Shown here in pieces: positions 2,190-54,055 of a stretch of 64,000 nt of DNA. Positions within the stretch are counted from its first letter, which is position 1. Each line of letters begins with the position of its first letter. This stretch comes from Obrimoposthia wandeli (lineage: Eukaryota): contig CDROCS010006332.1 in NCBI GenBank assembly GCA_977020255.1, positions 1 through 64,000 on the forward strand, written 5' to 3'. The notes below the pieces were generated by a model. The model saw only the letters and a list, made by a program, of their open reading frames with translations. It was not told the DNA's origin and did not search any database. The position numbers and the translations under genes were made by a program.

Positions 2190-2300
2190 CTCATCATGAG
2201 GTCATCATCATGAGGTCAAGGTCATTTAAGGTCATCATGAGGTCAAGGGTACAAAGTTGTATAGGTCATCATGAGGTTAAAATCATTTAAGGTCATGATG
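2190..2300. repeat. Subterminal cluster of AGGTCA-containing short repeats
   Basis: About 7 AGGTCA hexamers in 110 bp (CATGAGGTCA, TCAAGGTCA, TTAAGGTCA). Confidence 0.85.
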
Positions 2301-2669
2301 ACTAATTTGTTGACTTACCAAATAAAAATTAAAATTATTTCGAATTTATGTAGTTGATTATTTAAAATTTTTTGCGACCCTATATATGTATCTTTCTTAT
2401 AAATAAATTTTTTTTTCTGACCTTGTATATATGTATGGATATAAATTTTTATAAGGAAAATTTTTTCGCAAGCCTGTATTTATTACTTGTTGATCCACTG
2501 CGGGCCCGGAGGGCACGCTTTGGCCAATTTTTTGGCCTCTCAGGACCTTAATCAAAATTTTGGGAGCATTATGAGATTTATAAATTTACAGGGAGTTATA
2601 TGGAGTTAATTATTTTTTTGAATGTTTGGGAAGGGGACGGGTAGAAATTTTTTCGACACACCTACACGA

Positions 2670-2748
2670 AATTTCACTCCACACACATGCACGGTTTTAA
2701 AGGACAGTAGGGGGCGGGTGCGGATTAGACCGGATACATCCACATACT
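2670..2748 (-). repeat. Polinton-type terminal repeat (right end)
   Basis: Reverse complement begins AGTATGTGGATGTATCCGGTCTAATCC and contains CTGTCCTTTAAAACCGTGCATGTGTGTGGAGTGAAATTTC. The same motif occurs at 4795-4879, 7960-8030, 29390-29486 and 53660-54055. Confidence 0.7.
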
Positions 2749-4566: not shown

Positions 4567-4794
4567 TAAATATTTTGAAAATAATTTTGACTCGTATTTT
4601 GTTTTTTACCTCTAAATTATATAGATCTGTCTTAATTTGTCTCTTATAAATAAGAATAGCCGCCGGGGCCAATATGGATTCCCGTGGTCTTCTCTAATCA
4701 CTTTTTAGATTCATGGTAAATTTCAAAGTAAAATAAAAAATGTGGGGGACACCCCTCCTCATTCTTAGGGTGGAATGGAGACACATATGCATGA

Positions 4795-4879
4795 AATTTC
4801 ACTCCACACACATGCACGGTTTTAAAGAACAGTGGTACCCCTCCCGGGGGGTGGATCAGACCGGACACATCCACCTACT
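4795..4879 (-). repeat. Polinton-type terminal repeat (right end) abutting the intron of gene 3
   Basis: Reverse complement begins AGTAGGTGGATGTGTCCGGTCTGATCCACC; the flank GTAAAC resumes gene 3 intron sequence. Confidence 0.75.
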
Positions 4880-15611: not shown

Positions 15612-15679
15612 ATCCTGAATACCTTGTTATTTTATTTTTTCGTTATAAACAACGAGATTTGCTGCAAATTTAGATAATT

Positions 15680-17420: not shown

Positions 17421-18119
17421 TGAGCGTAAACTAATACATATACTAGCAAGTACATCTTCAAGCGTAGTTTTACAATTGCAGATGACTTGGTACCAGTGTT
17501 ATTAGGAAAACAGAGTATTTGTCTCGATCAACCGAGTTATATAGGTCAAACGGTTTTAGACATTTCTAAACTCAGAATGTACGAGCTTCAATACATAGAA
17601 TTAGAGAAATATCGACGAGAATTCAATTGTGAGATCAAAATCGCAGCTGGGGACACTGACTTTTTCTTTTCAGAATGTAAAAATGTTAGTTTAGATAATC
17701 AATTATTACCGGCAATGTTTAGGGACAACTTACTAGATACCCATAAATATCCCGCTAATCATCCTCTACACTCTATGAGTTTAAAGGACATTATAGGGAA
17801 ATTTAAGGATGAAAGCGAGGGACAGGTTTCGTATGATGATTATATTTTCCTACGCCCTAAATGCTACAGTTTACATGAATCTAATAATACATGTTCAATG
17901 AGAGTAAAGGGTGTGGGAAGAAACAATCTTACACATGAGGCCTACCGGAAAGTTTATGATACTGGGTGTATTGAAAGCGTTGAGCAAACTAGATTTATTT
18001 CAAGAGCCCATCAACTGTATTCCCATAAATCAACCAAAATCGCTTTGAGTAGTAATGTCGACAAGCGCTTTTGGGTAGAAAAGAACGCTAGCCTGGCTTA
18101 TGGACACTTCCGAATTTAA
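17380..18119 (+). pseudogene. POLB: C-terminal fragment of protein-primed DNA polymerase B
   Basis: EDLRKR..., QPSYIGQTVLDISKLRMY, GDTD (motif C), IIGKFKDE, LRPKCYS, RVKGV. Confidence 0.93.
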
Positions 18120-18381
18120 ATGGTTTTCATTTTTTGATTTTTTTAGTTTACTTTTTTTTAATTTTAGATCCCTATGGCACCTTGACTCTAACTTTTTGTT
18201 ATTTCAATACATTTTTTAGGATGGACCTTATTTTTGCTGACAGATCTCATTGTGATGTTGTTTTTAATAAATGTATTAAAAAAAAATTCGTCTCATGTCT
18301 TTTATTATTTTACCCTTATTTTTTAGGGATTTAAAAAAAAAAATCAAAAAAAACATTAAAAATATTTATTTTTATAACACA

Positions 18382-18764
18382 CTAATCGTTTTGCAACGAT
18401 AACCATAAAATACATAAATGTCCACAGTTTCTCGTCGCAGGATCCTGATATTGTATCTTGTTGTAAAATACTCTTCTTCGTTCTTTTTGAATAGTTGAAA
18501 CTAGTTTGTGTGGATAATACATTGCAAGTGGATCAAATACATGTATTGTCCACTCTCTAACATAAATAGCTATCCAATGTTCTCCTGATAAATTCGAAGT
18601 ATGAGTATTGATAATGTATCCTCCAGATTTTGAAAAAATGGAATCATATCAATAGGATAGACTCCATTGAATTTATCACCCAAGACCTTCTCTGCTGATT
18701 CTTGTACTTGTACTGAACTAAATAAAAATTAATAAATATAAATTTAAAAAATGTCTTACTTCAT
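18382..18764 (-). pseudogene. PRO: Adenain-type cysteine protease with an intron in codon 2 (one frameshift)
   Basis: Spliced MNSVQVQESAEKVLGDKFNGVYPIDMIP/GGYIINTHTSNLSGEHWIAIY...FDP...QYQDPATRNCGHLC; catalytic H, D and C motifs present. Confidence 0.88.
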
Positions 18765-18765
18765 T

Positions 18766-19994
18766 CTATAATATGACAGTTCTGTTTTTATTGATTTGTA
18801 TTTCGGAATCAAACACTCCGTAAATAAGCACCGTAGTAGGATGTGTTAAAGCTGCATTGAACTTAATTTCTAGTCGTAAATTTCCATCCCTTGGTAGTTG
18901 GCATTGGTTTATATCAAATGCTGGTGCCAAAACAAATGTGAAGAAGGGGCAGCTACTTTTAAACTCAGTGAAAGAAATACCATTGTTTATATTTTTATCT
19001 AGTTGGCCCAAATTCCGAATAATATATTGCGTATAAGCCAAATCATAAGCGTTACCTTCGAAATCTGTTTTATATGTTTCACGATAATCAGTATTTCGTG
19101 AAAGTGTCACTGAACCTAAATTAAGATAGTCAAATTGAGTTGCATCTGTCGTATAATTTCCTAGATACTTTGCAGTTTTTTGAAAATAAATTAAAATAAA
19201 TTTCGGTAATCTTACATCACCAAAAATTTGATCCTTATTTAAAGCTTGTGTACCCGTACCTAAAGAATAGGATATAAGTTTAGTTTCTCTAATAGGATAA
19301 CAAGCATTGTTTTTTCCATTCCTATATTATGTGCCATTAAAACTGATTACTCGGTTTTAACTCTTCGGACATACAATTTTGCATCCAAAATATCAAGTCT
19401 AGGTTTTAGAACGTTTGTGCTTATCAAAGAAAAATTCCATTTATTACGTTTCAAACGAAGATGTACATTTACACCGGGAATTAAATATTTCAGTCGTTCA
19501 AAGAAATTCAATCTCAAAGACCCACAAATTTCGTAAGCTTTAGAACCTGCAATCCATTCTTTGCGCGCTGCAGCCGTTTTATCATAACCAATGGTTGCCA
19601 AATTAGTATTTTGAGTATCAGTACTATAATTTAATAGACTTTCAATCAAAGCTTTATGAGCAAAGGAAGAATTTCCACCTTCAATTTTGACATTATTAAG
19701 AGTAACAATGGCATCACTAAATAAAGAATTAAAGAGATAATTTACAGGTGTTACATCTGCAATTTCCTCTAAATTAGTACCATCACGATTTAATACTTTT
19801 ATTTGAACATAAAGCAAAGTATCATTCAAATCTAAATACTCGCTATTGGAACCATTAATATTAAATTCTAAATCGGTTAAAGTGGTTCCTGAAACTGAGT
19901 TAACTAGAAATATTTCTTCAAAGGAAGCATTATCTATAACTACTTGTGGAAGTGGTTTATCAAAAATACACAATTCGGTTTTGGCGCAACTCAT
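18766..19994 (-). pseudogene. MCP: Major capsid protein (double jelly-roll, hexon-like)
   Basis: N-terminus TELCIF...LEFNINGSNSEYLDLNDTLLYVQIK; C-terminus GNLRLEIKFNAALTHPTTVLIYGVFDSEIQI. Stop at 19347 and a frameshift near 19310; the middle part can be read manually. Confidence 0.92.
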
Positions 19995-20368
19995 TTTGCA
20001 AATATTGTTCCTTCAACATTCTTACGTGTGTTTATATTAATTTTTTGATTCTTTTTACGTTTAAATCCACTACCTATTTGGCTTTTATTTGATTTACGTT
20101 TTCTAATCAAATTAGTAACTTCAGGTAAAACATTATAAAGTTCATCAAGCGCATGCTTCTTAAAAGTTGGTATTAGTTTATTGTCCTTAGTTGAAAGGTA
20201 ATCCTTTCCTAATTTTGATATAAACCGCCCGAGTCTCTTTAAAAGAGGAAAGGCAAATCTACCTAATTTTCTAAGCCAGCCAGATCCATATTGTTTACCA
20301 ACAAAATATGGTAATTTTCCACCTTGATGGCTTTGACTATAAGCTTCAATTATTGCTGGATTCGCCAT
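19991..20368 (-). CDS. Basic virion core-like protein with QGG/GSG sites and an amphipathic helix
   Basis: Intact 125-aa ORF between penton and MCP: QGGKLPYFVGKQYGSGWLRKLGRFAFPLLKRLG. Confidence 0.7.
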   Translation of the reverse strand: MANPAIIEAYSQSHQGGKLPYFVGKQYGSGWLRKLGRFAFPLLKRLGRFISKLGKDYLSTKDNKLIPTFKKHALDELYNVLPEVTNLIRKRKSNKSQIGSGFKRKKNQKININTRKNVEGTIFAK

Positions 20369-21409
20369 TTTGCTTTCTTAAATGTATTGTTAAACTTGTC
20401 TTGGCCCCGTACTTGAAATCTATTAGTTGTCCGGAATCATCTCTAATATTTACTTCAATATTGTTTATAGAAAAGAGAGAAACTGGAAGATACATTGGTT
20501 GATCTATACACATACCGACAGCGTCCCCATATCTAGTTTCATTTTTAGATATCCATATGGTTCTCAAAAGTGGAACTCGCTGTCCTCCTACAAGCGTTGG
20601 TTCTATTAAATTAGTATAAATATATAAATGATTAACAGCATTTAAAAGTTTTGCCTTATTTTTAGCTTTTATGGTTTTTATTGTATGGGTTTCAAAGGTA
20701 TTACTGTTTAAACCAAGGTTTTTAGCGAGTTTATCATCAAATAAAACTCGTATTATATTGCTCTTTACTGTAAACGTTATTTTACAATTTTTTAATCTTA
20801 CACATTTTTCAAAATATTCACTACATTCCTTCTGTATTAATTTACAGATATTCACTTCACTATCTAATTTATAATCTTTTGAAAACATTTTCAGTTCCAC
20901 TACATACTTTGGTCCCGTTTCAACTAAAAACACTTTTATTACTCTATCAGGAACATTTTTAAACGATTTAGATGAGGCTATATCAGATCTCTTCATACCT
21001 ACTACATGTCCACTGTCAAAACCGAATTGAATAGCTTCTTTTTCAGATCGAAATATAATTTGAATAGGTTTTGAAAAATGTTTTAGTCGATTTTTAAACC
21101 TGACTTTGTTTTTTTCATATATTACTTTCACTTCTTTATCTATACAATTGTAATATAATTTTCCTTTACTATCAAACCCAATCACAACTTCAATTGATTT
21201 TTCATGATAAACTTCTTTTGTAAACGAAAATTGTGAGTTTTTTTGATAGTAATTGGAGAATAATAAAATGAAAATTCTGTTAAAGCCGCTTCCTATTCTC
21301 CTTGGAGATTTATAGGATTTTCCCAATCGATAATAAAGCTACTAGCGTAATTGTCTGGTTGAGTCTTCGGACATCCGTTACTAGGTAAAACCATATACAT
21401 AGACTTCAT
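20346..21409 (-). pseudogene. mCP: Minor capsid protein (penton-like)
   Basis: N-terminus MYMVLPSNGC...F...P.NLQGE*EAALTEF; C-terminus LYIYTNLIEPTLVGGQRVPLLR...MYLPV...IEVNIRDDSG. Confidence 0.88.
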
Positions 21410-21415
21410 ATTATA

Positions 21416-22490
21416 TTAGATGCTGATATCCAAGTTGGGTCTGAATAACCATGCCATTTAACTTAGTATTGTTTATGTTTACCTGTACCCTTAGATTTTA
21501 ATATTTTTTGAATACGGAAAACGCTAGGTTTATTTAATATTACTTGTAGTTCTTGCTCGTCAAATTTACCGTGAACGATATTATTGTCAGCATCTTTAAT
21601 AGTATACATTATTGGATTACTCTTTTGATCAATTTTACTTATACAAAATATTTCATCGCTCCAATTCTGATCAAAGCTTTTAATAAATGGAGGAAAAATA
21701 ATTTTCGAAATTCGAACATATTCGTTTTTCTTATATTTAGCTTTTTTAATATTTTCTTTTTTATTCCTGTTCATCCAAATATCCATAGAGTTTTTATTAG
21801 TAACATTAACATGTCTCATTCCCTTGAGACCTCTATGTTCAGAGTGATTATATGCATGTATTATTTTAGGTAAAACTTGGATCCATTTTTTATTTCCTTC
21901 TTTTGTGAAATACATTTTTATTCGATCTCTTAAAGTACGATTAAATCTTTCTATTACTTCTGCTTTGTATTGTAAAACACAGAGTAGTGATTTATATTAT
22001 TTTGTTTAAATAAAGATTGAACTTACTAATTATAAAATTATTTTCCTAAATCAGTTTGCACATTTTGTGGAATGTCCTCTTTTAATATTTCTTTAATGGC
22101 TTCAAGCATAGCTATTGAAGACTTTGCTTTAACTGGAATTGCACGAGCAAACCTGCTAAATATATCAATACGTGTTAAAATATATCGATATCCCTTATTA
22201 ATGGAAGAATATGGGATCATCTCCATCAAATCCATTTGACATAGATTATTAGGACCGCTGGTTTTGTAAGCTCTAGTTGGAAACATTATTCTCATCGGCT
22301 TGTTCAGACTGTAGGCTAACTGGTAGTTCAGCCATTTCTGCGTTTTCTTGTATTTTTGTTTTGTTCTTTTGGCTAATTTTGAAACTCATGTGTAGCCAAT
22401 TGGATCTTTTGTGTTGAACCATATCTTCTCCATTACAACAATTTGAATAGAAAGAAAATTTAAATTTTGGTAAAGAAGGGTTAGCACCAT
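21416..22490 (-). pseudogene. INT: Retroviral-type (rve) integrase with C-terminal chromodomain
   Basis: QMDLMEM, RIDIFSRFA, QTDLGK, ERFNRTLR, QY*VKWHGYSDPTW; several stops and frameshifts. Confidence 0.93.
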
Positions 22491-22519
22491 TATCTTTATC
22501 TGATTTTTGAAATAATTGT

Positions 22520-22783
22520 TTATGTACGTGTCGCAGCTATAATACTATTGATAATTGAAGCAACAACTGGAATAACAGCCCCTATGAAACCACCATTCTG
22601 TTTAAGAATAATATTTCGTTTCCTTTTTTTACTTTTTACATTAGCAATATCTAGAAGAGTTTTTCTATATTTCTTTAATATATTTTTCCGATTTCCAACT
22701 TTTACTCGACCCAAAACTATATTATACAAAACTTCCAATAAATCATCTACAACAAAGGATGGAAATGCTTTAAGAATAATCAT
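22520..22783 (-). CDS. Small conserved Polinton/adintovirus-type protein ending in QNGGF plus a hydrophobic helix
   Basis: Intact 87-aa basic ORF between ATPase and integrase: LKQNGGFIGAVIPVVASII. Confidence 0.7.
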   Translation of the reverse strand: MIILKAFPSFVVDDLLEVLYNIVLGRVKVGNRKNILKKYRKTLLDIANVKSKKRKRNIILKQNGGFIGAVIPVVASIINSIIAATRT

Positions 22784-22888
22784 TCTCTTATTAATTTTTT
22801 CACTTCTTTTTTCTTAATGATTCTTTTTTTTGATTTCTTAGATTTTACTTTACGTTTTACTATCAACTTTGTAAAAGGCATCGCGAAT

Positions 22889-23553
22889 TTATTTTTTATA
22901 ATTGTTCTCTATTTGTTTATAAACAGTTACTCCATTAGAATTAAATATGTATGTTAAAACACGTAAATCATCTGTGCAAGCTTGTGTAAAGTCAATAAAT
23001 ATATACCCATGTGCTTGTTTAGCAGCATCGTGGAATGAATCAACTAGAAAGTTCTTATCTTGAGGAAATGCCTGTCTGGCCACAAAATCAACAACTGTTT
23101 GATCTCAAGGATTTTTCAATAAAACTAAGTAATGTACATTAAGATTTCTAGTTCTATGGTGACCTCCTTGGTGAAAAAAATTTTGAGTGATAAATATAAC
23201 TGTTACTTCACGATGTCTTGCAATCTTCGTAAATAAATTATTAAAGTCTGATTCCTTGTTAGCTTCCTGATACAAATCATCAATTATTATTACATCTTCT
23301 TTTTTCAATCTTTCACACCAATTTGCATCAAATCCTTCAATAAATTGTATTCTCTTCAACTTGCAAACTTCTGTTTTGGTTAACCCGCTTTCCCCTCCTC
23401 ACCCATGATGCCAATAAATATTTTTGAAACTAGATTTGAAAATATATTCGTTTAACAACAATTTACATACGAAATGTGTGTTTCCACTTCCACTGAGACC
23501 AACTATTTGAAAGACAGCATTATTATTTAACTCCATTACAGATATATTTTCAT
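22889..23553 (-). pseudogene. ATP: A32/FtsK-like genome-packaging ATPase
   Basis: Walker A GLSGSGNT, Walker B VIIIDD, ARH, ITQN, LARQ and GYIFID motifs; one TGA and one frameshift. Confidence 0.92.
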
Positions 23554-23565
23554 TTTTAATATTGT

Positions 23566-23850
23566 TTATATTATCATAGAAGTTTTCTTATTGAAATGTA
23601 CAATGTTAGAGCTATTGTAGATGAAATACAAAAATTAATTAATGAATATTTGGCTATAATTTTATTTATTTGTGTACTATTTCTAAATTCTCGAATAACG
23701 TGTTATCTAACCAATATTTCAATGTTATCTCTTGTTATATCATTATTTTTTAATTCTGATAAAATTTCTTTACCCCTTATTTTTCCAGAAAATATTTTGT
23801 CGGCAAGACGATCCACTTCATTGTCTATATTTATAGTATTATTCATTTGA
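23566..23850 (-). pseudogene. Accessory gene 6, copy C
   Basis: Homologous to 3023-3310, with a premature stop. Confidence 0.6.
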
Positions 23851-23874
23851 TACAATAAGTTTAAAAGGGTTTGT

Positions 23875-24371
23875 TTATAGAAATGATAACAAGATGTAAT
23901 AAGATATATTTTCTAAAATCAAATCAACAATGTCTGGATAATCAAAATTTTTCAATCCCAATATCATAACTTTATCACTGGAAAATATATTTACACATAG
24001 CGGTTTAAACTTCAAATAACTGAGAGCAGGAAAATTTTCTGGTTCAAACATGCATTCTTCTTTCATTTTCTCTGCAGTTTTAAAAAGATTTATCTGTTTC
24101 CCGAGATTAGCCGAAATCGTGATTGATTGTATTGCAGTGATTCGAATTCCAAACGGTAAATTGAACCCAAGCATTGGTATTTTGCATCCCATAACACGAC
24201 AATTTCCTAAAAGAATTCAATATGAAAATAAAAAAACTAACCTGTAGGAAAAATAACAACTGTAAAATTGTCAAACTTTTCCCCATATTGTCTCGGCTTC
24301 CATTCATTGAATGGCAAGTACGAAACATCATCTTCTGTTCTAGCTTTATAATTTATACTTACAAGTTTCAT
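23875..24371 (-). CDS. TATA-binding-protein-like protein, 153 aa, two exons, intact
   Basis: Exon 1 24371-24242, 35-nt intron 24241-24207, exon 2 24206-23875. Repeat 1 VVIFPTGNCRVMG and repeat 2 FEPENFPALSY...CVNIFSSDKVMILG parallel TBP ALIFSSGKMVCTG and YEPELFPGLIY...LLIFVSGKVVLTG. Confidence 0.8.
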
Positions 24372-25647: not shown

Positions 25648-25726
25648 TAAATATTTTGAAAAATAATTTTGTCTCGTATTTTGTTTTTTCTCCTCTAAAT
25701 TATATAGATCTGACCGATTTTTTATT

Positions 25727-26955: not shown

Positions 26956-27445
26956 TTATCTACATGTCAAGTAATAATAAGAAAGACTTAAACATTTTTT
27001 ATATGCGCAATGGTCACCATGATTACGATATGGACAGCAAATATTTCGTGGAATTTTTAATAGATGATCACGTGAAATATTTAAAGTATTCAATCTCAAT
27101 TTGGGAAAATATTTTTTTAAAGTCTTATACATTTTTGCCATCCATTTCATTTAAAACATAAAAACTTCCATTTTCAATATCAAAATTAGATTTTATTGTA
27201 TCGAAAATACATATTTCACAAAAAGTCTTACGTCCTTCTTTCCATTTTAATAAATGAAAGTAATTAGTTAGATATAAATGAGTAAATTTTTTCTTATAAT
27301 CTAAACTTTTAAACGGGATATCTATTTGAAATATGAAATGCAAAGGATGAAAAACGTTGCATACATCCATAATACACAATTATTTTATAATATAATCACC
27401 ATTTTTGTTAATAAAAGCCTCAAAATCTATGATATATTCCTGCAT
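26956..27445 (-). pseudogene. DEDD/Maelstrom-like nuclease, copy C
   Basis: Nearly identical to copy B, including the same TAA and the same frameshift. Confidence 0.6.
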
Positions 27446-27514
27446 AATTATCTAAATTTGCAGCAAATCTCGTTGTTTATAACGAAAAAATAAAATAACA
27501 AGGTATTCAGGATT

Positions 27515-28940: not shown

Positions 28941-29389
28941 TTTTAGCACATGAAACCCATGGCAATGTCCATTTGTCAAATTGAGTTCTTTCACCCATCT
29001 TGATGGGGAAGTTAAAGGAAGTCTGTGAAAGCCTAAAATACACTAGTCACAGACTATACACCAGCCCATCACTTTTCATTGTTTCCTAAGGAAGTCTTCC
29101 TTCTTGATACATTTGTTGTTTGACACGAGTCCTGAGAGATCATTATAGCACCCAAAAGGGGCTGTGATATACTTTTGGTAATATTTGAAATCTTTGTTAG
29201 AGCGTTCTGTGATTTTTGTTGTAATACCACGCCGGGCTTGAAAATACCTAATCATTAAGAACGTTAATTTCCACTGTGGTCTTCATTCACCGAATTTTGA
29301 GATTCGTGGTAAGTGATTTCAAAGTACATTTTTAAAAATAACACATAACATTTTCCCCGATGAGTATGGGTCGTGGTTTCTATGAAGAC

Positions 29390-29486
29390 ACACATCGAAA
29401 TGAGTTCACTCACACACATGGGTTTTAATTTGTCGAATATCTCCCAGTATGAATGTCGGATTAACCGATGACACATCCGACCTACT
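29390..29486 (-). repeat. Degenerate Polinton-type right terminus
   Basis: Reverse complement begins AGTAGGTCGGATGTGT; TTCACTCACACACATGGGTTTTAA lies upstream, as in the other termini. Confidence 0.55.
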
Positions 29487-38915: not shown

Positions 38916-40329
38916 GTCCTAGTGGTCAGTAACCATTCTTAGTAGCCAGTAGTCCTTCGTGGTGTTATGGCCTCTTAGCTTACTGGTTGGTTCTTCAGTA
39001 TAATTGCTGGATCTGGATGACTCTTGAGGACGCTTACAGTTTGCCAGCAAGCCGGTGCCGACAACCTTCAGGTTAGCCAATCTTTGTCTCCCTAGCCAAA
39101 TCCCATTGACACAGCCTTGTAAACTGCGTCCCTCGGAAGTTGAGAAGTGTGACTGTCCACCTTCGTGACTGAGAGGGTATGGACCCTTGTTCCCCACCAT
39201 TATCAGGATCTGACCTCGGTTCACTCGGGGCACTGAGTCAGTCGAGAAATCTGTGGGTAAACCAGACTTACATTCCTGCAAGTTATCCGAGTCTCAGGGA
39301 GTAAATAAATACAAGCTACGACAAAAGACGCGGACTGGTACCTCAGAATCCAGAATACATTAATAAAACCAAACAGCATCGACCAATTCGGTCAAGGACA
39401 TTGAATAATCAGAGTTGTATGAAACAAATATGGAGTCTGTTTCAACTTAGTTCGGGATTTTTAACGTCATAAAAGTACAGTAAGAAGTTATTTTAAATAA
39501 TTTACAGAAAACATTTCAAAATATCTTTACAATTCTATGTGGAAACTTCAAGGTTGAACAAATGAATGTTATTTCATATCAAAGATTATACCAATTGTAT
39601 CTAAATAAATGGAGGTGACAGCAATCCATCTGATCAAATGGCAGAAAATAGAAGAACAACTCACAAAAAGGATCATTGGGAGGCAAGTGGATCTGACTGA
39701 TGTTGAGTTGGGTGTCACTGCACTTGACCTTCACATCATGACCTTGTTCAGGCCCCCCTACTGCCAAGGTCATGTTGAAGACTGAGTCGTCGATACAAAA
39801 TAGGTCACAGCCACCTGCATGCAGTGGAATAGCAAGTGTAAAGGTGGAACACACAAACATGGAAAATGTAGGTCACAAACCCTAAAGTAGGTCACAGACT
39901 CACAGAGAGAGCGGAGGTTGCTGGTACGCACTATGAATATTGCAGTGGACCCGGCAAGAAGGCGATGCAAAAGAAATTCCCCTCGCCTGCTTTGTCGCAC
40001 CAGAAGGGCCAACTCAGCGTCTACCAAAGCCAGAACCACCCCCCGTAGTGAGTGAACCGTCAGGGACACTGTCACCGTCCTCCCAAGTCCGTCTGGGTTC
40101 ATGCTCCCTTTGTCCAGCCAGTAGACGTAGTCAGCACCACCATATTGCATTGCAAACGCTGCACAACCAATCCGGATCTGAGGTTGCAATAATAATAATC
40201 GAAATATTTATTGATATCAACAAAATTCTGAGAAAGCAGGATGAAAGAGAAAGAAAGTAGGAACACAGAACATCAGCCAGTGGTTCGACTGCTCCTTGCG
40301 AAATACCAAGTTAGTGAATAAGCAGGTCA

Positions 40330-40570: not shown

Positions 40571-43499
40571 GTATTGATGTCAATCAATAAAGAAATCTCA
40601 TCGAATGTAATAAAAATATTTTAACAAATGATCTAAATTATAACAAAGAATATTTGACTTAGAGAAAATGTAAAGAACAATTATTTAGTAAAATAAAAGT
40701 AAACGTTCTTATAACTTCTGGTTGATTTTTGATGGAAAGATAATGGACCATTTGTGAAGAAGATTTAAAAGAATGTGTCACATTCAATTGTTTGCTTTTA
40801 TTTATTGTTGTATTATCTAAAGATATAATAAATAAATAAATTTAATAAAATATTTAACTAATAAATTTGTACGTCAATTTTTTGTGGATTATTTGGAATT
40901 ATCTGTACTATTTTATTATTTGATTGACAATGTCACCACGGGATCACCAGTGGGTAACTTCTGGTATGTAACGAACGAACCCAGAGATACTAAGATTGAT
41001 GTTTAAATTGCTGATAATCATTTAAGGATAAATAAACTATAAAATCGTAATGCAAAAGAAATAGGTTCAAAGGTAATGGAAGTGGACATAGAGGGAGATA
41101 ATCCAAATTGACACTTTGTTGTTTTCTCATCATCTCAGTTTAGTATCTCATTGCCTGATCTTTGAGACCCAGAGTGACGTTGTCACACGGTGGATTATTG
41201 GGGTTCTCAAGCAAATATCAGCTGGTACGAGATGCCCCACCTTTGAAAATCTTGCCACCCAATTCCCATCGACTCTGTCAAGAAGTAAATGAAGAATATT
41301 TCCCTTCTAGAACTTCGATGATTTATAAAGTCTTCAAAATTTGGAATAAATTGTCAATTTACCTATTCAAGAAACTCCCTGAAACTAAATGCAGTTTTAA
41401 CACTTCGTAGCCCCCAAGATTAATTATAAACCAAGCGCCACTGGTCGAGGTCCCATGGGCACATTTGACTTGCGAGGTAAGCAAAGAACATTGTATGAAA
41501 ACCTGCGAACGAGAACGTTATATTGCAAAATCTAATTTCCCTGTAATTTACATAAAACCCCACTGAAAAGTATTGAAACATAAAAAATATATTCCCAACA
41601 ATTACTTTAACATTTTCAACAGAAACGATTTGTTTTTAAATAATTTAAATATTTATTTCTAGGTCATTTTCCAAGGCCTATCAGATGTTGTGGCTATATG
41701 ACACTCATTAGGGACATTTTTACTTTGATTCCGCTTTTTCTGCCTAATGGCAGAACTATTTTTAAGCTAAATTTCAAAACTGTGTGATGGTAAATTTCCC
41801 AAATAAACTATTTCTGAAACTCGAACTCTTTTTGTTTATCCCTATCTGGTGTATTGGTATATGAGTACATTTATCTGAAGGAAATGTTTTATTTTGTTCA
41901 TATTTGTTGTATTTTACCAATTTTCTTACACTTCATTAATAATACAGACAATTTTAATCCATTAACTTTATAAACAGTTGTATTTTTGTTCTTATCTGTC
42001 CACTGTCGTTACAATTTAACATATTACTTAAAGAGATTAAAAATTAATATGAATACCTAATCTTTTCTTTATTTCTTCAGTTTATAAATATCATTTACAT
42101 TTGTTTTCTGTATATTTTGTGAAGCCTATTTTTGTTTTAACGTATTTTAATTGAAAATGGCTGCTAATTAATGTAAACATCGAATTATATTTCCATACAC
42201 AGTTTCTCCAGCACTGTTCTTCAAAGCCGCTCTGTGACAGTTGTCAAATTCTTGTTTCTGATAATGTTTGCCAATGGAGACGGCAATCCGATGGTGCACC
42301 CTCGCGCCCCCAAAGATGACACTTACCGAAAACAGCGGCTAGAACCAGCAGCGCCGATTGAGTCATTCTTGCAGCTGATTGTTGTACATAATACTGCAAT
42401 GTCGAGCTGCAAATTTTATGGCCGGACGCAAATTGACCTCTGAATGATGATGGATCGGTGTGGAGTGATTGTGTGGTTGGTTGAGACAAATTCACGAAAT
42501 TGAAGGTGCATGGTTGTAGCTATTATCAAAGTCTATTTCAAACCTTCTTACGCACTCCATTTAGACTCCAATTGAGCTAAGAATATATCCAAGAAGTTGG
42601 GTTAATCTACAGCGTAATTATTTCCATGTCCCATTTGAATTATTTCTGAATACATCGAATTTATTATACCCTGTTTTTCAAATCAAATAAGAAATTTTAG
42701 TTTACATCAAGCTCTTGACAGCATTTAACAACGTCGATTTATGTTTTTAAACTTGCAACAAAATCTAAATAATTCAATTTTAAACAAAACATTCCTTTAT
42801 CTATATAAATTTTTGACTATTAAAACTTACAATTGTGATTAAAATACAAAAAATTCATTTAAACCTTTATCATAGGGACTGAGAAATATGAGAAAAATTT
42901 CAATTGGAATGTGTAAATTGGCCAGTCTAATCATCAGACACAGTCAGAGCTGAGGGGAGTCAGTTGATCCCAGAATACAGGGGTTGGATGGTCAGAGCTG
43001 AGGAGTTGGACAGTCAGGCTGAGGGAGTTCAAAATGGACAATAAATGTACGAATTATTAAATGAGGGCAAACAAGGACAAATAAAACTTAAAAAAGTAAT
43101 CGAGAGAAAATTATGCAGGCGATGCAGTTGATGGTTTTAAACACAATGTAGAGAGTCAGTTAACCTCGTGTGACCTAGCCGGACTGTATAAGTCAGTCAC
43201 TGATGCATCACGCCTGCTGTGGATTTTTATAAAAGTATAACATAATTATAAATAATAACTAGTAGAAGATAGTACAAGCAATAAGCGTCTTTAAATAGAA
43301 AATGTTTACTGTTAGGAAACAAGAAGTTACTACAAGCCTGAAAACTACAATGCTACGCATACGATTATTACATCAAGACTTGATTTCTGAAATTCTTCAT
43401 TGAATGACATTTCAGTTTACGGATAAAATCATTAAAAAGAAAATTTTAAAAAAGAAACTTCTTTTCAAACCTTCATAACCTTTCTGAGCCAGACCCTAT

Positions 43500-43606
43500 G
43501 GCGAGTCAACGCCCTATACCCTTATGGTGTGACACCCTTTGACATGTGCGTAGCACATGGAAGAACCCCTCCCGAAAGTGGTCTAGACTCCATCAAAGTA
43601 CCCACT
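43500..43606 (-). repeat. AGT-starting terminus related to the 5317-5586 element
   Basis: Reverse complement AGTGGGTACTTTGATGGAGTCTAGACCACTTT; shares CTTATGGTGTGACACCCTT with 5480-5510; truncates the nuclease gene. Confidence 0.55.
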
Positions 43607-45140
43607 ATAATATAATCTCCATTTTTGTTAATGAAAGCCTCAAAGTCTATGATATATTCCTGCATAATTACCCACATATGTAACCAAATCCCTTTTGTTT
43701 ATAACAAATTGAAATATAAACCAATAATCAAAAATTTATTAAAATATCAAAAGTAAATCTCCGTATTCATTTTTCTCAGTAAAATGGTAAATGTTTTAAT
43801 TCTCCTATGAATATTAAAATAAATTATATAAAATGTAATCTTACAAAACTATTTTTAAAAGTAAATTACATATTTTATCTGCAACAATTTCCTGAGTATC
43901 GTGTTTTTGAGAATTTCTTTTTTCATAATCTTCCATTAAATCTGAAGAGTAATTTAATGTGTAACTTATTCAATTTATTTTATCATCCATATTATAAAAA
44001 AAACATTATATATAAAATTGATTATATTTAATATGGTTATGTAAAATATTTAGTCAATTATGTAAAAATACCCTTAATTAATCAATAAAATTAATAAAAT
44101 AATTAGTTTAAAAAAAAAAATTGAGGACCCTCTTCAGGTTTAAGCTGGAGGATTATCTTTCTTGCAGCTCGGCGATTGTCCTCCATCTCCACTCTTCTTT
44201 TATCAGCCAGTTTCTTTTGCTCCAATTCAGCCTTCCTATTCCACTCCAGGATCCTTCGTCGCTCAGCTCCATCCGTCGATTCCACTCGGTCGCGACAGCT
44301 GCTCTCAAATTCTGATTCAGGATCATCTTTCTTAAATTTCCTTTATTCACATTTCTTCTGATGTTCTCCTCTATTTTTGTCACGACTTTACATTTAAGTA
44401 AATTTCATTTTTTAGTTATAAAGAAGTAAATAAATTTTAACCTATTTATATAAATTTGAAATATTTCTAATACAATCACATTCAATTAAGGTATATATTT
44501 TTATTTGACAAATGGGAGTTTATATTTTAATAAATGTATCACTTATGATTGCATTTTAATATAACTAAATTTTGTACCAAAATTCTAAACTTTTTAAGTT
44601 TTTTTTTTAATAAAAGTTTTAAAAAAAAATTTATAAAAACAAAACACGTAAAATTATTTTTTTATGAATTATATTATTCCAAAAAACACTTCAAAAAGTC
44701 TCATTGGGATCATCTTCATCGATATCCCTCCGTCTGAGTGGTATAGGAGTAAGCGGCACTGGTTCCTTCTTCTTTGGTCGGCCAGGTTTCTTTTTCGCCT
44801 GCACCAGTTGCTGTACAGCAATTACTATTCCCTGAGGTTTTGGCAGGAGTTGTCGCAACTTTTTGGAAGGATGTTCAGCTGATGTAGATGGCCCCGTATA
44901 CAAAGTAGTCGGTTTTGCTGCCTTCCTCTTCCGCAAAGCTTTTTTCTCTTTCTCCTCCTTCTCACGCTCTTCATTCGCATCAGGATGCATTGCCGGTTTG
45001 CGGAGTATCCAGTTCCGCCAGAATTTGTCCAATCCAGCTTCATCGCAGCCCTCTCCAAGTTCTGGCTGGTAGATGCTGTTGGCAGAGGAGAAGCAGTCTC
45101 CAAAGCCCTAGTCAAATTTTGGTTGATGCTTAATGGAGCC
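43607..45140 (-). pseudogene. Copy D of the accessory arm (gene 1 3-prime part, gene 2, gene 3, start of the nuclease)
   Basis: Same gene order as copies B and C; KKKPGRPKKK intact; nuclease MQEYIIDFEAFINKNGDYI cut at 43607. Confidence 0.85.
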
Positions 45141-45580
45141 GGTGCTATCAAAGTCATAAAAGAAATCATCAATGTTTGACCAAAATCAACCGAAATTTAA
45201 AGATTTTATTGATTTTTTTACAAGTTTTTCAATAAAATCACATTTTTGACAAATAAAAATTTAGAAAAATTGGTTCTAGGGGGTTTTGTTCTGAAAGATG
45301 CACATCTCCCTAATGAGGCGGTTATACGATAATTCCACACCAAGAGACTAAATGGGTTAGACATAATAATTACATATCCAGTGACTTAAGACTTTTTCAG
45401 TAATACAACTATTCAAATTATTTACGATGACATATGCACCCCCATTTGAGAACAAGTCAAGAGTGTATCTTAAATTTATGACTATAAAACTGTTTTTTTC
45501 TTATATAATGTAAAACGTTTAATTCTAAATTACATATTACAATTAAAAGAGGTTTAATATGAACCCTTTTTCTATCGCAG

Positions 45581-46401: not shown

Positions 46402-46719
46402 AATCTGAAGCTGGAATATATAATAAAATGCCCATGTGAGATGATGTGAATAAGTTAAGTTGTGCTATTAAGTTTACATTTTTTTCAGTATGGAATGTGA
46501 ATAAATTTATAATATATGTAAAGTTACATTTCTAAAGTTTTAAAAGTATCTTTGGTTTTAAAATTTATATGTCATCTGTGTTGGCTAAGCAATGTTTAGA
46601 TCGAAGTCCTGTGATCATGAAATTTCTGAAATCTCGTTACATTTGAATTTTGTAATTTTTGGAAATGAAAAAATAGACCTCAACCACGGAACATTAATTA
46701 ACCAGATTCATTCCGGTCA

Positions 46720-47830
46720 GTTATCAGAACAACGATGATGTTGATGTGTTCATCAGAGACTACGAACGACAATTCGTCATTGCCAAGATGGAGGAAAGAA
46801 CTCGATGAAGAATGGTAAAATAACTACTGGAATTTGAACTCATACTGCGATACGAAAATGTTTATAGGGAAATAAAGAGCTCTGGGAAAAGTTTCAGTGT
46901 GGCTTACATCACTGTATCAACGATGCAGAAATTCCGAAGGAAATATAAATGAGATATGTAATGACTGTAATGGGGAAAAAATTAAACTATTAAGAAAATG
47001 TCGCGTGCTAAGAATCCAAACAAGTAACAAGTGTTGATCCAAAAACAACAGTACATTAAGGAGTAAGTCAACGAGCTACAGAAGAACAGAGTCACCCAGA
47101 AAAGTCATAGACGATCGCCAAGTTGTGCGATAATGTTGGCCCTGTGGTGAAACAGGAGATAGAAGGAGATAATCTCGTGATAAACCGATTAAATCATTAT
47201 TTTGTGTTATGTGTTGGGCCACAGAAGACAAGAAAGTCCCACTGTCGAAGATGTCAAGCTCGAGGATATAGAACCTCAAAATATTATACGGAATCAGATA
47301 GACAAAGTATTGGAAAGAGAAGAAGTGAGCAGACGTCAAGGAGACATTAGCTGCACGAAGAGAGCAGGAGACAGCAGTCAGTATCATCTAAGCACAAGAT
47401 CAAGCCGAAGAGATTATAAGAGTCACAGATACAAGTGCGGCATCGACAGAGGGAACCAGATTGCAATGCCGGAGTAGGTAGATGTTGCACTTCTGGAACA
47501 AAGACCCCCTTACTGAGGACAAAATGTATTTGTTCTACTTTTTAGGTGACTCATCGATTATGTCATCGATTACTCAAATCCTTTGTTCTCCTACACATGA
47601 CTGATCACGTTTCCTCATGAGTTCATTTGAGGTCATGTTAAGGTCAAATTTCTCCCATGTACACCTGATATTTCAAGGTCCAGGTCACATGAGGTCAAGG
47701 TCATGTGATGTAGGTAAAATTTATCTCTAATGTACCTTATCAGGGGACTTTGTTCCAGAAGTGCCACATCTACCTACTTGCCGGCAATAGGTTTCAGAAT
47801 CGAGAAAATGAGAAGTTGACTGTTTGCTGT
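46720..47830 (+). pseudogene. Decayed LTR-retrotransposon gag-like region
   Basis: DVDVFIRDYERQF... and a degenerate zinc knuckle (YKCG...PDC) interrupted by the 306-bp insertion. Confidence 0.5.
47473..47778. mobile_element. 306-bp non-autonomous element (MITE-like) with Polinton-type ends
   Basis: 36-bp TIRs AGTAGGTAGATGT(T/G)GCACTTCTGGAACAAAG(A/T)CCCC with 2 mismatches; TSD TGCCGG at 47467-47472 and 47779-47784. Confidence 0.93.
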
Positions 47831-49599
47831 TGAATAATATGGAAGAACTAGAAGGCTTTCAGAGGATTTGAGTAATAAAATATCCTAAGAAAGTGTGTAT
47901 AAAGTTTTAAACATAATCTCGAAATTATAGATAAAAAAAGAAAGAAGCCAATCTCAGAAAAGAATCCCAGAAACAAATTCAAATTATTAATAATAAAACT
48001 TCGAAGCATCTCTGTAAACATCTCTTGAAAATGCCCAATCAGATAGTTTGGTCAGTGGGCTCGAAAATGTCGAGATTCGGTGAGGTGAATTAACAATTGC
48101 CAATAAATTTGATCTCATTTCCATTTCCTCAGACGCCGCGATCAAAAACAGCGACTTCCACTACCAATGGACCAAAATCAGCTGGATCCAAGATCCTCTC
48201 TCTTCTCAACGTGCTTTATCATCAGTGAAGTCCGGCACGGTATTGATGCGTATTTTATAGGCGATACATTTCTGGTTTGGTAGAGGCCTGAATCAACCTT
48301 TAATAACCCCTCAAATGTGACCAAAATCTGAAGCTTATATCATCTTTGGGATTATTCTCAACAACTGAATCATTGGAAAATTGTGATAAAAAGGGAATAT
48401 TCTTTATAGTATGTTATATAAAACATGTTAAATTTTCTATTTTATGCAGACTATTTACATGCATCATTTGAAGGGATAATTTGCCTTTCTCACGAATATC
48501 TCACGAATACAAATTTTACGTTCACCTTTTGATTGAAATAAATTTGTTTAATGAATTGGTAATAATATTGACTCGTAATGACTCATCTATTTTATTGATG
48601 ACTTGCATTTAATAGCACTGATTATTTCTATATGAACCAATGAATCAATTCTCTTATCCGCGATTTAACTTAATTTCAATAACGTTCTTCACCAGAGCCT
48701 CAAGTTAATTCTCTCGCCATTCGAAATCCTGCTCTAGAAAACTAGAATTTCTGAGGTTTCATTCCAGTTGAGATAATTTCTGAAACCTTCGACACAGGGT
48801 TCTTTCCGGCTTTAAAAATCTTGAGGAAACATACACTCTAACTCTAACACTTTCTCGACCAACTTTCAACAAATTGATCTACTGTTCTGGGGTACAAGCA
48901 CTTCACCTGCACTTTTCTCGAAAGACACACATACAAGACCCCCTACTTACAAAGTTTATAATCCAACTCCCTTTGTTACAAAATGTTTAATGGATAAAAT
49001 TGTTGCACTTTTTTATTTAAATAACGTCATTATTCATAAAAGTCTGTATCAAAAAACAAGTGAAATGAAACTTGGTATGCTCTAGAATCCCCAGTATACT
49101 AATAAAAATAAAACTACACTCAAAGATATCAAGAAATGTTGTTTTAAGAGAAACATAATATCACCTGAAGAACTCTGGGATAAAGATGGTAGAAGTTTAT
49201 TGTTATCGAATCAAAAGATATTAACTGCTCAAATGGTGTCATATAGGCATAGTAAATCAGAACATTGGCAAAATCGGATAAAAACCTACAGTTATCTGCA
49301 ATACAAAAGACGGAAAGACGGAGTTGATCTTGATTGTAAAGTTTTAAAAAATCTTGTAAATAAAAGACAGCATTAATTAATTAAATTTTGATTTCAATTT
49401 CCTCGGCCATACTGATTTAAAACTTTAGTAAAAGAGAATTAATTCTTGATTTACCATAATAGCTTTTGCGGAGGCAGTCTGTTATTATGCAAACTGGAAT
49501 TACTTTGATGAGGTGTGGTGCTCATTTCTACATTCTGTAAGTTTGTCATTTGTTTCGTTTGAATAATTTAACTTATTTATCCCTGACACATGGACGGAA

Positions 49600-50640
49600 G
49601 AAGCTTAAAAGACCAAGATAGTGTAACTCTTGGCAGCTGACAAAACCCTTCTCGAAATAGCAAAGTTTCCAAATAGACATCCACGAACATTGAGAAATAT
49701 TCTAAAAATGGTCAGAAACAGCGTACTCGACGGGACGAGGGATTAGGAGGAATGTTAGTAGGCGACAGATAATCCTGATGAGGAAATCAGAAAGCAGCCA
49801 TCCGCTCTCTTCAATTAACAAAGTCTTTATCACCACTCGAGTCGAATGTTTGTCCCGTGCTTCAAGGTGAAGAGTTTTGAAACGGTTGCAGATAAGAGAA
49901 CTGCAAAGAAAGGGACACCGTTATCGAATACCAGCGTGGGAAAGCGCCTAGAATGGGAAAGGGAAACTTCCAGACAGACTTCAAACATGTTTTCTTCTCT
50001 GATTTATGCTGTGTCCCCTTAGATGGTCCTGTTGACTTGACAGCAAGGTGGAGCTGAGAAGGGTTTGGGCAGCACTCCATGCCGACATGTTGATTGGACC
50101 GTATAAGGCTCCAGATGGCGGGAAAATGGACTCTGGCAGTTTGATTGAGTTTGTATAATGTACCACTTACCACAGGCCGAACAAAGATGAGCGGCTCTCA
50201 TTCAAGACCAATCAAGATCCGTATGAAACAATGTTGTTGAACGACGACAAGGGTTGGTTGGCTAGAAAGATTTGAGAAGGGTTGGTTGGCAAGAAAGATT
50301 TGAGAAGGGTTGGTTGGCAAGAAAGATTTGAGAAGGGTTGGTTGGCAAGAAAGATTTGAGAAGGGTTGGTTGGCAAGAAAGATTTGAGAAGGGTTGGTTG
50401 GCAAGAAAGATTTGAGAAGGGTTGGTTGGCAAGAAAGATTTGAGAAGGGTTGGTTGGCAAGAAAGATTTGAGAAGGTCGCACGATCTTCTGATCAAACTC
50501 AATCGACAATTACAGAGCAGTGTTTAATAAATCGGCTTAGTCATAATTTGGGCCATGAATACTTTTCACCAAAACAGAAGCAAATGAATTACCGACCTTG
50601 CCCGAATTCATATCAGATTGTGCTCCTTTAATGAAGAAAG
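49600..50640 (+). pseudogene. Tc1-like transposase remnant
   Basis: LEW...TDFKHVFFSDLCCVPLDGP resembles Tc1 W..V.FSDE...LDGPD; MNYRPCPNS resembles W.P.SPDLNP. Confidence 0.5.
50251..50474. repeat. 28-bp minisatellite, 8 copies
   Basis: GGGTTGGTTGGCAAGAAAGATTTGAGAA x8, with one substitution in unit 1. Confidence 0.98.
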
Positions 50641-51610
50641 CCATACCACACATGTTTATACCTTGTTGATTTAATTAAGAATTTCCAATAATCTTTCGCC
50701 TAAGTTTGAAATTTTATATGAAACGAACTTTTTGATGCATTTTAAAATAATTATGAAACTGTCTTTGACCCTTCCTTCAGAAACGTTTTGCACGTTAAAA
50801 GCAAAAGCCTTTCCATTTCTATACCATTTAAAGTTTGAAATTTACTGTCCATTCAAGTTCCCCGCTGCCAGTTGCAGGTGCCGACATTGCAGATGCGAGG
50901 GCATTGGTTTCATCTCGGCTCTACATAAGTCGATTTAAGTTCACATTATTGCGATAAATAACAAAAAATTATTTTTAACATGAATTGAAAATAATCACTT
51001 AAAATAAATAAATAGTAAAATAATTTGTTGCCAAATTATAATTACAAAAATATACAACTATCTTCGATTTTAAAGTTATAAAAGAAAAATGCATTGTATA
51101 AACAAATTCGAACTCGCTTAAAGACCTAAACTGCCACATGCCATACCAAAAGATAGAGGGGAACAGACAATGAGTCGGGCGTCTTGACAAAATTAAAGGT
51201 TGTCAAGTTAGGCATTGGCAGAGTTTCGTCAGGTTTAGTTACAGCGGAGAAGCTGCACGCGCGGTGATGGTCCCAGATCTACTTACTCCACTTGATACAG
51301 TCCACACTCTCACCCGCCAGCCAATCGATTTCACTATTTCTGTTAATATATTTGTTTTATTTCAGAACAAATGGAAAATCATTGCAATCGTTGCAATCCC
51401 TTTAAGTGAGCTTCATTTTTTGTCATTTGAATTTGTTTTTTAGTTCTCATTGCTATGTTTTTTACTGGAGCCGCAATGATTTGTCACTACAAGATCGTTC
51501 CTTGGTTTGTTGAATTTTATGTTAGATGAAGATGTAATACCTTTTTTAATTGCAGTTTAAAGCGAAGTCATAAAGATTATACATCTGTATCAACGGGAAA
51601 TGATCGGGGA

Positions 51611-52972
51611 ATGGCGTCTGAAAATCTCGATAAAGAAAAAGGGAGGCTAACAATCTTGTTAGAACTTTTGAAGGTAAACAAATATGAGGAACACGATAAA
51701 GAATCATTATTGGCAAATTTAATAAAGGTTGAAGACACATATAGCAGCGACGATGTCCAGCTGAATGATTTGGTGCAGAATCTCAGATGCAACGTGGAGC
51801 CCAGTATTGATTGTGAGACGATACGTAAAAATGTATCACTCTTGATGAGCCATTTGTTGAAATATTGGAACCCTGATTGTTCGGCTAACATAACTGTGAC
51901 CCAGCATTCCAACATGGCTTCAACTACGCCTGTGGACGCTAAGGAGCCTTCATCGCCCATATCATCTGTGTTGCAGCCTGGGCAGTTCGTCGAAGCCAAG
52001 CAAACGCCAAGTAAAAATTATGTACCACAAAAGTCAGACCCAAAACAATCAACATCATCAGAATCTCGATCAACAAAAGATGGCACTAAAAAACCTAGGG
52101 CTAAAACTACAAAAAATACAACATATTCAAGCCCTGGAGTAGAAGAAGAAGCAAAGAAAACAAGTTCTGAAACTGCAGAAGAAGCAAAGAAAACAAGTTC
52201 TGAAGCTGCAGAAGAAGCAAAGAAAACAAGTTCTGAAGCTGCAGAAAAAGAAAATAAATCAAATTCAAAACCTACAGAAGAAGCAAAGAAAACAAGTTTT
52301 GAAACTGCAGAAGAAACAATTAAATCAAATTCCGGAGCTCCAGAAGAAGAAAAGAAAACAAATTCTGGAGATACAGAAGAAGAAAGGAATGCAAATTCAA
52401 AGTCTGCAGAAGAAGAAAAGAAAACAAGTTCTGAGGCTGCAGACGAAGCAAATAAAACAAATTCTGGAGCTCCAGAAGAAGAAAAGAAAACAAATTCTGG
52501 AGATACAGAAGAAGAAAGGAATGCAAATTCAAAGTCTGCAGAAGAAGCAACAAGTTCTGAGGCTGCAGACGAAGCAAATAAAACAAATTCTGGAGCTCCA
52601 GAAGAAGAAAAGAAAACAAATTCTGGAGATACAGAAGAAGAAAGGAATGCAAATTCAAAGTCTGCAGAAGAAGCAAAGGAAATAAATTTTGAAGCTGCAG
52701 AAGAAGAAAGGAATGCAAATTCAAAGTCTGCAGAAGAAGAAAAGAAAACAAGTTCTGAGGCTGCAGACGAAGCAAATAAAACAAATTCTGGAGCTCCAGA
52801 AGATTCAGCAGAATCGAGTCCTGAAGTGACAAAAGAATCGATAGTTTATTCTGGTATGGAGACTGACGTAACAGCTGATCAAAAATGCCCCACAAGTGCA
52901 ACAACCTCAATCGGATCCTCTACCCCACAGATGGTGCGTGCTTCAATAAGAAATTCTGAAAGGAAATCGTAG
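51611..52972 (+). CDS. 453-aa protein: helical N-terminal region plus 20 hydrophilic 11-aa repeats
   Basis: Longest ORF in the window; 33-nt repeat units at about 52140-52800; the only indel in the array is an in-frame 6 nt. Confidence 0.7.
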   Translation: MASENLDKEKGRLTILLELLKVNKYEEHDKESLLANLIKVEDTYSSDDVQLNDLVQNLRCNVEPSIDCETIRKNVSLLMSHLLKYWNPDCSANITVTQHSNMASTTPVDAKEPSSPISSVLQPGQFVEAKQTPSKNYVPQKSDPKQSTSSESRSTKDGTKKPRAKTTKNTTYSSPGVEEEAKKTSSETAEEAKKTSSEAAEEAKKTSSEAAEKENKSNSKPTEEAKKTSFETAEETIKSNSGAPEEEKKTNSGDTEEERNANSKSAEEEKKTSSEAADEANKTNSGAPEEEKKTNSGDTEEERNANSKSAEEATSSEAADEANKTNSGAPEEEKKTNSGDTEEERNANSKSAEEAKEINFEAAEEERNANSKSAEEEKKTSSEAADEANKTNSGAPEDSAESSPEVTKESIVYSGMETDVTADQKCPTSATTSIGSSTPQMVRASIRNSERKS

Positions 52973-53659
52973 AAGGAATGCATGTGAGTCACGTTAGAAA
53001 ACATTTTTCTAAATAATTCTGATTAAAGTACAAGTTCCTCTTTTGATCAGCAGTCAGAAATCTTTAACATTTCCTTTGAATGTGAAATTTAAGATTGAAA
53101 TTCATAGTAAATATTATTTAAGTTTCGTCATAAAAGTCTTTGTAAGATTTTATTTGAATATGACTTGAATACGATTCGTGATATGTTAATCTTTTATTTT
53201 ATAGAAATTTTATTTCACACATCTTCTTTCCCAACTGCCAATGTGCCTTACCAAAGCTTTTAAAATAGAGAACTGCGTTATTAGTGATGTAGCATATAAA
53301 GTCATGGTTCCATATATTATTTTTAGACGAAATTCGATTGGTTAAAGGATATTTCTCAATGGTATTAACAAAATCCGGTACAAGGTGACCCTACATTTTA
53401 CTTGAATGAGGATATATAGAGAGACCTTTTCAAAAGACTCTGTCTATCTTTTGACACCGCCCATATTGAATTTGTCACCATTGATTAAGAAGATGGAAGT
53501 GCAAAGAATATTCCACGTATTTTTGTGTTGTTTAAGTATGAATATCCTAGCTCTGCTCTTTCAAATGACGAATCTTTATTTGTTAAATGTATTTATGAAG
53601 TGCGAATTGCCTGGAAATGGAAATATGACGAAAGGTTGAACTGTTGAAGCTGCTAATTG

Positions 53660-54055
53660 GGACGGGTACTCCCATGTCCTTTAATCTTATGCGTGTGTGG
53701 AGTGAAATTCCATGCATGTGTACCCGGTCAAATCCACCCTACCCACCCTGTTAAAAGCGGGGTTCCAAAAATATTCGTGTTCTGTCGGACGCGAACGTAC
53801 GTATCTCATTTAAGTCCGTATTTACTCAAAAAATTATGAAAAGAAATACAAGACAAAATTAATTTCAATACATTTATTAAAAAATATAAGACATCATATT
53901 AGTTTCACTGAAAGTATTTATATATTATGGTCGGTGGAGTAGATTAGACCAGACACACAAGCTCTAAATTTCACTCCACACAAGCATGATTTCAAAGGAC
54001 AGGGCTATCCCCACTTGGGAAGGGGTGGATTAGACTGGACACATACATCATGCTG
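53660..54055. mobile_element. Inverted pair of Polinton-TIR-like sequences (eroded mini-element)
   Basis: TGTCCTTT...TGTGTGGAGTGAAATT...GGTC(A/T)AATC at 53675-53740, inverted at 53940-54000. The right end (reverse complement) begins AGCATGATGTATGTGTCCAGTCTAATCC. No TSD found. Confidence 0.6.

Follow-up and report, generated by a model that had tools for sequence, protein, structure and literature searches.

The insertion at 47473-47778

The window, i.e., the whole stretch of 64,000 nucleotides that was analyzed, contains a degraded Polinton, a number of lone Polinton-type ends and, at 47473-47778, a non-coding insertion of 306 bp with AG...CT ends that lies between two perfect copies of TGCCGG (Table 1). 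The initial annotation had placed this element at 47467..47784, an interval that includes both target site duplications (TSDs); its 36-bp terminal inverted repeats (TIRs), as well as the TGCCGG duplication adjoining both ends, were recovered as described. The TIR ends sharply at 36 bp, and the two arms are unrelated past position 40. Among the 63,660 segments of this length in the window, 48 (7.5e-4) are flanked by a 6-bp direct repeat, and no direct repeat of another length fits around the element. Parses with a 5-bp or centered TSD, with TG..CA ends or with the CCGG of Ginger1 fail on symmetry.

Table 1. Features of the element and of the Polinton-related DNA in the 64-kb window.
Feature	Position	Strand	Remarks
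Left TSD copy, TGCCGG	47467..47472	.	6 bp
Left TIR, starts AGTAGG	47473..47508	+	36 bp; 34/36 identical to right TIR, blastn E 1e-10
Interior	47509..47742	.	234 bp, non-coding, non-palindromic; negative with Pfam, Rfam and tblastn
Right TIR, terminates ...CTACT	47743..47778	-	36 bp
Right TSD copy, TGCCGG	47779..47784	.	6 bp
AGGTCA half-site array of the element	47620..47703	+	5 exact and 2 near sites, right half of element; spacing 4, 5, 29, 0, 4, 0 bp
Degraded Polinton core	17457..24371		pPolB C-terminal piece (+); protease, major capsid, PW, minor capsid, rve integrase, A32 ATPase, TBP-like gene (-)
Type A end	4780..4879	-	caps fragment 2834-4629; sharp boundary against interrupted repeat at 4880
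Second type A end, accessory-gene side	2655..2748	-	79% over 100 bp to the 4879 end, E 5e-20
Third type A end, right of main Polinton	29150..29486	-	local alignment score 45 to 4630-4890, reached by 0/300 shuffles
Type B end, degenerate, single	45278..45314	-	26/36 to right TIR; 160 bp beyond copy of Polinton accessory-gene DNA (43607-45118)
Subterminal AGGTCA array	2191..2300	+	about 450-560 bp inside the 2748 end

The interior gave no match to Pfam models in six frames, nor in a tblastn search with the 11 proteins of a related Polinton (L001, see below), and Rfam returned no match at E<=1 over 47300-47950. Being short, non-coding and bounded by TIRs and a TSD, the element has the makeup of a MITE, or miniature inverted-repeat transposable element. 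A de novo scan of the window for TIRs with TSDs yielded 217 candidates, nearly all of them artifacts within long inverted repeats, and among the candidates listed, the 306-bp element is the sole one below 1 kb with a 6-bp repeat. The 64-kb window contains a single full copy and no empty-site paralogue of the insertion, and hence neither further family members nor another TSD to compare. The clean insertion described in the initial annotation thus stands as far as the TSD goes, this being its sole basis. When folded as DNA, the element has a z of -8.8 and a strand forms a TIR panhandle, the shape proposed for excised Polinton strands; since any TIR folds in this manner, it provides no independent evidence. 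About 80 bp downstream, element positions 97-113 have an inverted counterpart at 47860-47876 (16/17), which is probably due to chance (E 0.19).

The target had initially been called gag-like, a description that our searches of the flanks did not confirm. With stops read as X, neither the six frames at 46560-47466 nor the six at 47785-51500 had a Pfam match, none of 58 candidate proteins from a word-based homologue search was a hit at E<=1, and HMMER against 1.84 billion proteins retrieved one weak match (E 2e-4), to a repetitive protein. By eye only, there is a degenerate stretch ~250 bp upstream of the element that we take to be zinc-knuckle-like. On the other side, there are broken and Pfam-negative frames at ~49600-50200, the motifs of which presumably resemble a Tc1-like transposase; a tandem repeat with a unit of 28 bp comes after them (50249-50476).

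Polinton DNA of the window

The degraded Polinton core lies at 17457..24371. Among the 126 open reading frames of at least 75 aa that were scanned in the window, Pfam identified rve, Pox_A32, Peptidase_C5 (adenoviral protease) and TBP in this core, with the Polinton rve being the sole integrase or transposase match. The integrase of this Polinton (type A) is split over several frames. A homologue of the core's capsid fragment groups with double jelly-roll clusters; a comparison with PHROGs gave one integrase-related and one weak match out of 15, and a PDB sequence search with the pPolB piece had 0 matches. The core is flanked by inverted, gene-bearing arms of 3.3 kb (14186-17378 and 25760-28923) that are 86% identical overall and 98% over 733 bp; in butterflies, 2-kb Polinton TIRs containing genes are also reported (10.1101/2025.02.07.637071). 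The TBP-like gene is found at 3396-3770, 10939-11145 and 23941-24371 (Pfam TBP E about 1e-9 to 1e-10) and is apparently split by introns in the window, while in L001 it is a single open reading frame (10246-10698).

A search for related Polintons, from which termini could be taken, reduced 85 candidate stretches to three loci, of which L002 and L003 are fragments from the interior. The third, L001 (JANOGQ010000345.1), is an independent syntenic Polinton; its contig stops short of the left end, and it yielded no verifiable terminus. The proteins of L001 map to the window at 28-55% identity and comprise pPolB, ATPase, integrase, both capsids, PW, protease, the TBP-like protein and that of an accessory gene with counterparts at 15695-16160 and 26965-27430. 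As L001 has them too, the TBP-like gene and the accessory region that is repeated in the window can be regarded as Polinton DNA. All three contigs belong to bacterial metagenome-assembled genomes, most likely as a result of binning contamination.

Three type A ends, at 4879, 2748 and 29486, agree up to an identical last base, and the flanks outside them differ. Between the fragment at 2834-4629 and the main Polinton, on its ATPase/TBP side, identity is 91-93%, and the end at 4879 is, as judged from these alignments, a true boundary of a degraded Polinton family. Convincing partner left ends and TSDs were found in the window for none of the lone ends (2748, 4879, 5586, 29486, 31447, 43606 and 45314).

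Several smaller structures accompany these ends. A possible lone end starting with AGTAGG at 31430-31447 (-) resembles the element in the outer 14 bp only. Within Polinton accessory DNA, 5317/5320-5586 and 5604-5960 form a small, largely palindromic element (type C) with AGT-type ends and no visible TSD, the right end of which has apparently been tandemly amplified as a 52-bp repeat and has a relative at 43606 (43490-43606). At 53659-54047, a degenerate mini-element of ~390 bp has type A Polinton arms in inverted orientation, lacks its left tip and encloses a scrap with 81-82% identity to 4531-4599 and 25612-25681, both Polinton DNA; it looks like an old collapsed Polinton. Finally, 37900-38867 and 51530-52972 hold a satellite with 49 copies of a 20-bp unit and an open frame of 480 codons that is made up of a 33-bp Glu/Lys/Ala-rich repeat and has no Pfam match.

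Relationship of the element to Polinton ends

There is a single mismatch between the terminal 13-mer of the element and the end at 4879 (-), as the initial annotation had noticed. Extended to the outer 14 bp of the right end, the match is 13/14, for which 0.02 sites would be expected on both strands of the window. The exact 10-mer AGTAGGT(A/G)GA occurs four times, always at an element boundary (4879, 5320, 47473 and 47778), and AGTAGG or AGTATG is likewise the sequence of the Polinton ends nearby. Farther inside, the comparison with the three type A ends is shuffle-like, both for TIR positions 15-40 (z 0.4-1.3 or lower) and for positions 41-120. The full TIR, on the other hand, matches the degenerate end at 45278-45314 (26/36, with 0.002 sites at >=25/36 expected), and here positions 15-40 contribute as well (z about 4). 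Since the likeness to type A ends at ~14 bp and the full TIR is matched by 45278-45314 alone, the partner of the element is probably a sister family that is not present as a whole in the window. The simplest reading of these alignments would be that several related Polinton families share a 14-bp terminal core and that the element derives from a type B family. What the remnant at 45314 has in common with both ends of the element is limited to positions 1-40, which suggests a functional unit of 36-40 bp, and the remnant may itself be a MITE end.

A chance arrangement or an assembly artifact was considered, given that the window is rich in repeats and that an 8-bp palindrome overlapping the target might obscure where the element begins and ends. 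The joint statistics of the TIR match (E 1e-10), the abutting 6-bp repeat (7.5e-4) and, at 45314, an independent, diverged end of this type refute the explanation, to which we assign practically no weight.

The second link to Polinton DNA is the AGGTCA motif. Exact copies start at 47630, 47641, 47682, 47692 and 47698, all on one strand, and in 5,000 dinucleotide shuffles of the element, five copies were never reached. The initial annotation was right in counting five and in pointing to a similar region near 2190-2300, where seven are present at 2199-2290. Of the 45 AGGTCA in the window, groups of three or more in a 45-bp span are confined to 2199-2263 and 47682-47698. The two arrays have the same polarity toward the nearer end and a 4- followed by a 5-bp spacing in common, and the interior of the element shares with 2191-2300 an exact match of 17 bp (E 0.004); its alignment with 2101-2748 is modest, with 1/300 shuffles reaching the score. 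Six AGGTCA/TGACCT sites are grouped more loosely at 39725-39889, where nothing connects them with a Polinton. AGGTCA is the nuclear-receptor half-site, with the spacings of 0, 4 and 5 matching classic direct-repeat response elements. Going by the motif, the arrays might link the ends of Polintons with hormone receptors of the host.

Origin of the insertion

A TSD of 6 bp is characteristic of Polintons (PMC10045372; PMC8097293), elements whose length is 13-25 kb and whose TIRs and TSDs measure 100-1500 bp and 5-8 bp, respectively (PMC10748475). Vertebrate Mavericks have TIRs of 46-1447 bp and end in (AGT)2, (AG)3 or (AC)3A (PMC8097293). The AGTAGG terminus of the element matches (AGT)2 in five of six bases, whereas its 36-bp TIR falls below the vertebrate range. 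With a 6-bp TSD (from a single insertion), AG...CT ends and a terminus shared with a Polinton of the same genome, the element displays three traits of Polinton-derived DNA. The initial annotation had gone further and called it a parasite mobilized by Polintons, a proposal that is upheld in so far as the TSD, the ends, the 14-bp terminus and the AGGTCA array point to a Polinton-type integrase. On these grounds, we consider it quite probable that a Polinton integrase made the insertion at 47473-47778.

How the insertion came to be 306 bp long is less clear. We estimate about an even chance that the element is a miniature non-autonomous Polinton derivative, i.e., a MITE, of the type B family that moved as a 306-bp unit. 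In such a case, it would have retained two 36-bp ends and one subterminal AGGTCA array, an intact integrase encoded elsewhere in the genome would have recognized the ends and excised the element, and insertion with a 6-bp stagger followed by host repair would have left the TGCCGG duplication. We infer this enzyme, the movement in trans and a helper that would share the outer 14 bp and differ in the inner TIR from the observed anatomy, TSD, motif and array. Because the type A integrase is broken and the type A TIR differs, that family is probably not the helper. Cut-and-paste by the integrase alone would be a simpler route than one requiring the protein-primed polymerase. The sharp stop of the TIR at 36 bp and the absence of a coding remnant inside, as in MITEs, support this origin; against it, no complete Polinton with a type B end is present in the window, and the remnant at 45314 has neither a partner nor a TSD.

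The insertion could also have been made by a large or full-length type B Polinton, with the TSD dating from that event and a later internal deletion leaving the two ends in place. The evidence for the Polinton link fits such a collapse equally well, and truncated Polinton pieces and lone ends are abundant in the window, where the element occurs as a single copy and the mini-element at 53659-54047 combines type A arms with an internal Polinton scrap. Polinton remnants consisting of TIRs only are reported for a C. elegans locus (PMC11414722). However, a single deletion leaves inverted identity over the length of the shorter arm, and so either the parent had a TIR of just 36 bp or the breakpoint fell within ~40 bp of one end. 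The type A ends share about 100 bp, the remnant at 45314 has only positions 1-40 in common with both ends of the element, and coding remnants were found inside neither by Pfam nor by tblastn. We regard in-place collapse as the main rival origin, though a somewhat unlikely one.

Third, the element might be a MITE of an unrelated DDE transposon with a 6-bp TSD (IS3EU/GingerRoot, a 6-bp hAT or an undescribed family), its end likeness to Polintons being convergent or captured. Short TIRs, such as the one of 36 bp seen here, are typical of cut-and-paste elements, and the similarity to type A is confined to 14 bp. IS3EU, GingerRoot and Ginger1 have integrase-related or IS3-like DDE enzymes; the first two likewise make 6-bp TSDs (PMC10045372), and CCGG, the target of Ginger1 (PMC2836005), is contained in the TSD, although just 174 of the 63,995 6-mers of the window include it. 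Yet the ends of IS3EU/GingerRoot are TA..TA, rarely TG..CA (PMC10045372), and were not found on the element, while Ginger1 has 4-bp CCGG or CCGT TSDs and TGT ends (PMC2836005); the sequence fits neither parse. Moreover, an unrelated transposon would explain neither the 13/14 match of the terminus nor the tight AGGTCA array in common with Polinton DNA, the sole integrase or transposase found by Pfam is the Polinton rve, and an exact search of 185,579 prokaryotic genomes for the TIR pattern had 0 matches. An origin from an unrelated DDE transposon appears improbable.

Other assignments were tried and rejected. The CCGG of the TSD does not abut the right end symmetrically, as a Ginger1 assignment would have it; a CCGG target preference has no support from the flanks of the other ends. 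Elements of the hAT group have YA-type ends and LTRs have TG..CA ends. A hAT with a 6-bp TSD or a solo LTR was discarded, given that the element ends in AG..CT and that no TSD is left when TG..CA ends are read across the palindrome of the target.

Relation to known elements

Autonomous Polintons/Mavericks (Polintoviruses) resemble the element in the 6-bp TSD, the AG...CT ends and, in the window, the outer 14 bp of their ends. They differ in their length and in the size of their TIRs (PMC10748475), and in encoding pPolB, integrase and capsid, all of which the element lacks (Pfam in six frames, tblastn with the proteins of L001). That an element may depend on a helper Polinton has been proposed before, and there are curated families of the kind: Polinton-1N1_DR is a named non-autonomous Polinton family (PMC9341505), and Tlr1 elements are sometimes termed non-autonomous polintons (PMC5499653). 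In the anole, non-autonomous Polinton copies are reported to be apparently absent (PMC3014272). With MITEs, the element shares its short length, the lack of coding sequence, TIRs with a TSD, the assignment to a superfamily by ends and TSD, and a TIR that partly matches a candidate helper; it differs in that the probable helper is self-synthesizing and virus-like, and in being seen as a single copy in the window. The named non-autonomous Polinton families run to several kb and Tlr1 has genes of its own, whereas the element is of MITE size. The excerpts of PMC6431247, PMC8504770, PMC12220804, PMC11296320 and 10.1101/2025.02.07.637071 contain no MITE-sized Polinton, and none was listed in a literature search by titles and the beginnings of abstracts. 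Non-autonomous Polintons as such are already known, a MITE-sized derivative would be a small variant of them, and a short curated family may exist in Repbase.

Implications

If the element is only a collapsed remnant, it would be ordinary transposable element debris. If, instead, it was moved by a Polinton integrase, it would be a natural minimal donor, ~36 bp per end would suffice for integration, instead of hundreds, and some of the unclassified MITEs with 6-bp TSDs in animal genomes would be Polinton satellites. The Polinton transposition model is based on sequence inference. Experimentally, the life cycle of Polintons is still unsettled (PMC5499653). The initial annotation had expected the element to define the minimal cis requirements for replication and integration. 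As a MITE can be moved by the integrase alone, the element represents, at best, an upper bound on what integration needs; the part on replication was an overreach, since there is no sign of polymerase-dependent replication and the data have no bearing on the use of a polymerase.

A broader set of propositions, taken jointly, is unlikely, namely that the element belongs to an active, high-copy Polinton MITE family of ~300 bp, that a 36-bp end, with a 14-bp core that several Polinton families of the genome have conserved, is sufficient for transposition by a Polinton integrase, that the element may be a mini-replicon and that AGGTCA is a binding site. Were they true, the AGGTCA array would be a binding site for a host protein of the nuclear-receptor type or for a protein of the element, inherited from the end of the parent. 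An element copied by the protein-primed polymerase may then be a defective-interfering satellite of an endogenous virus-like element.
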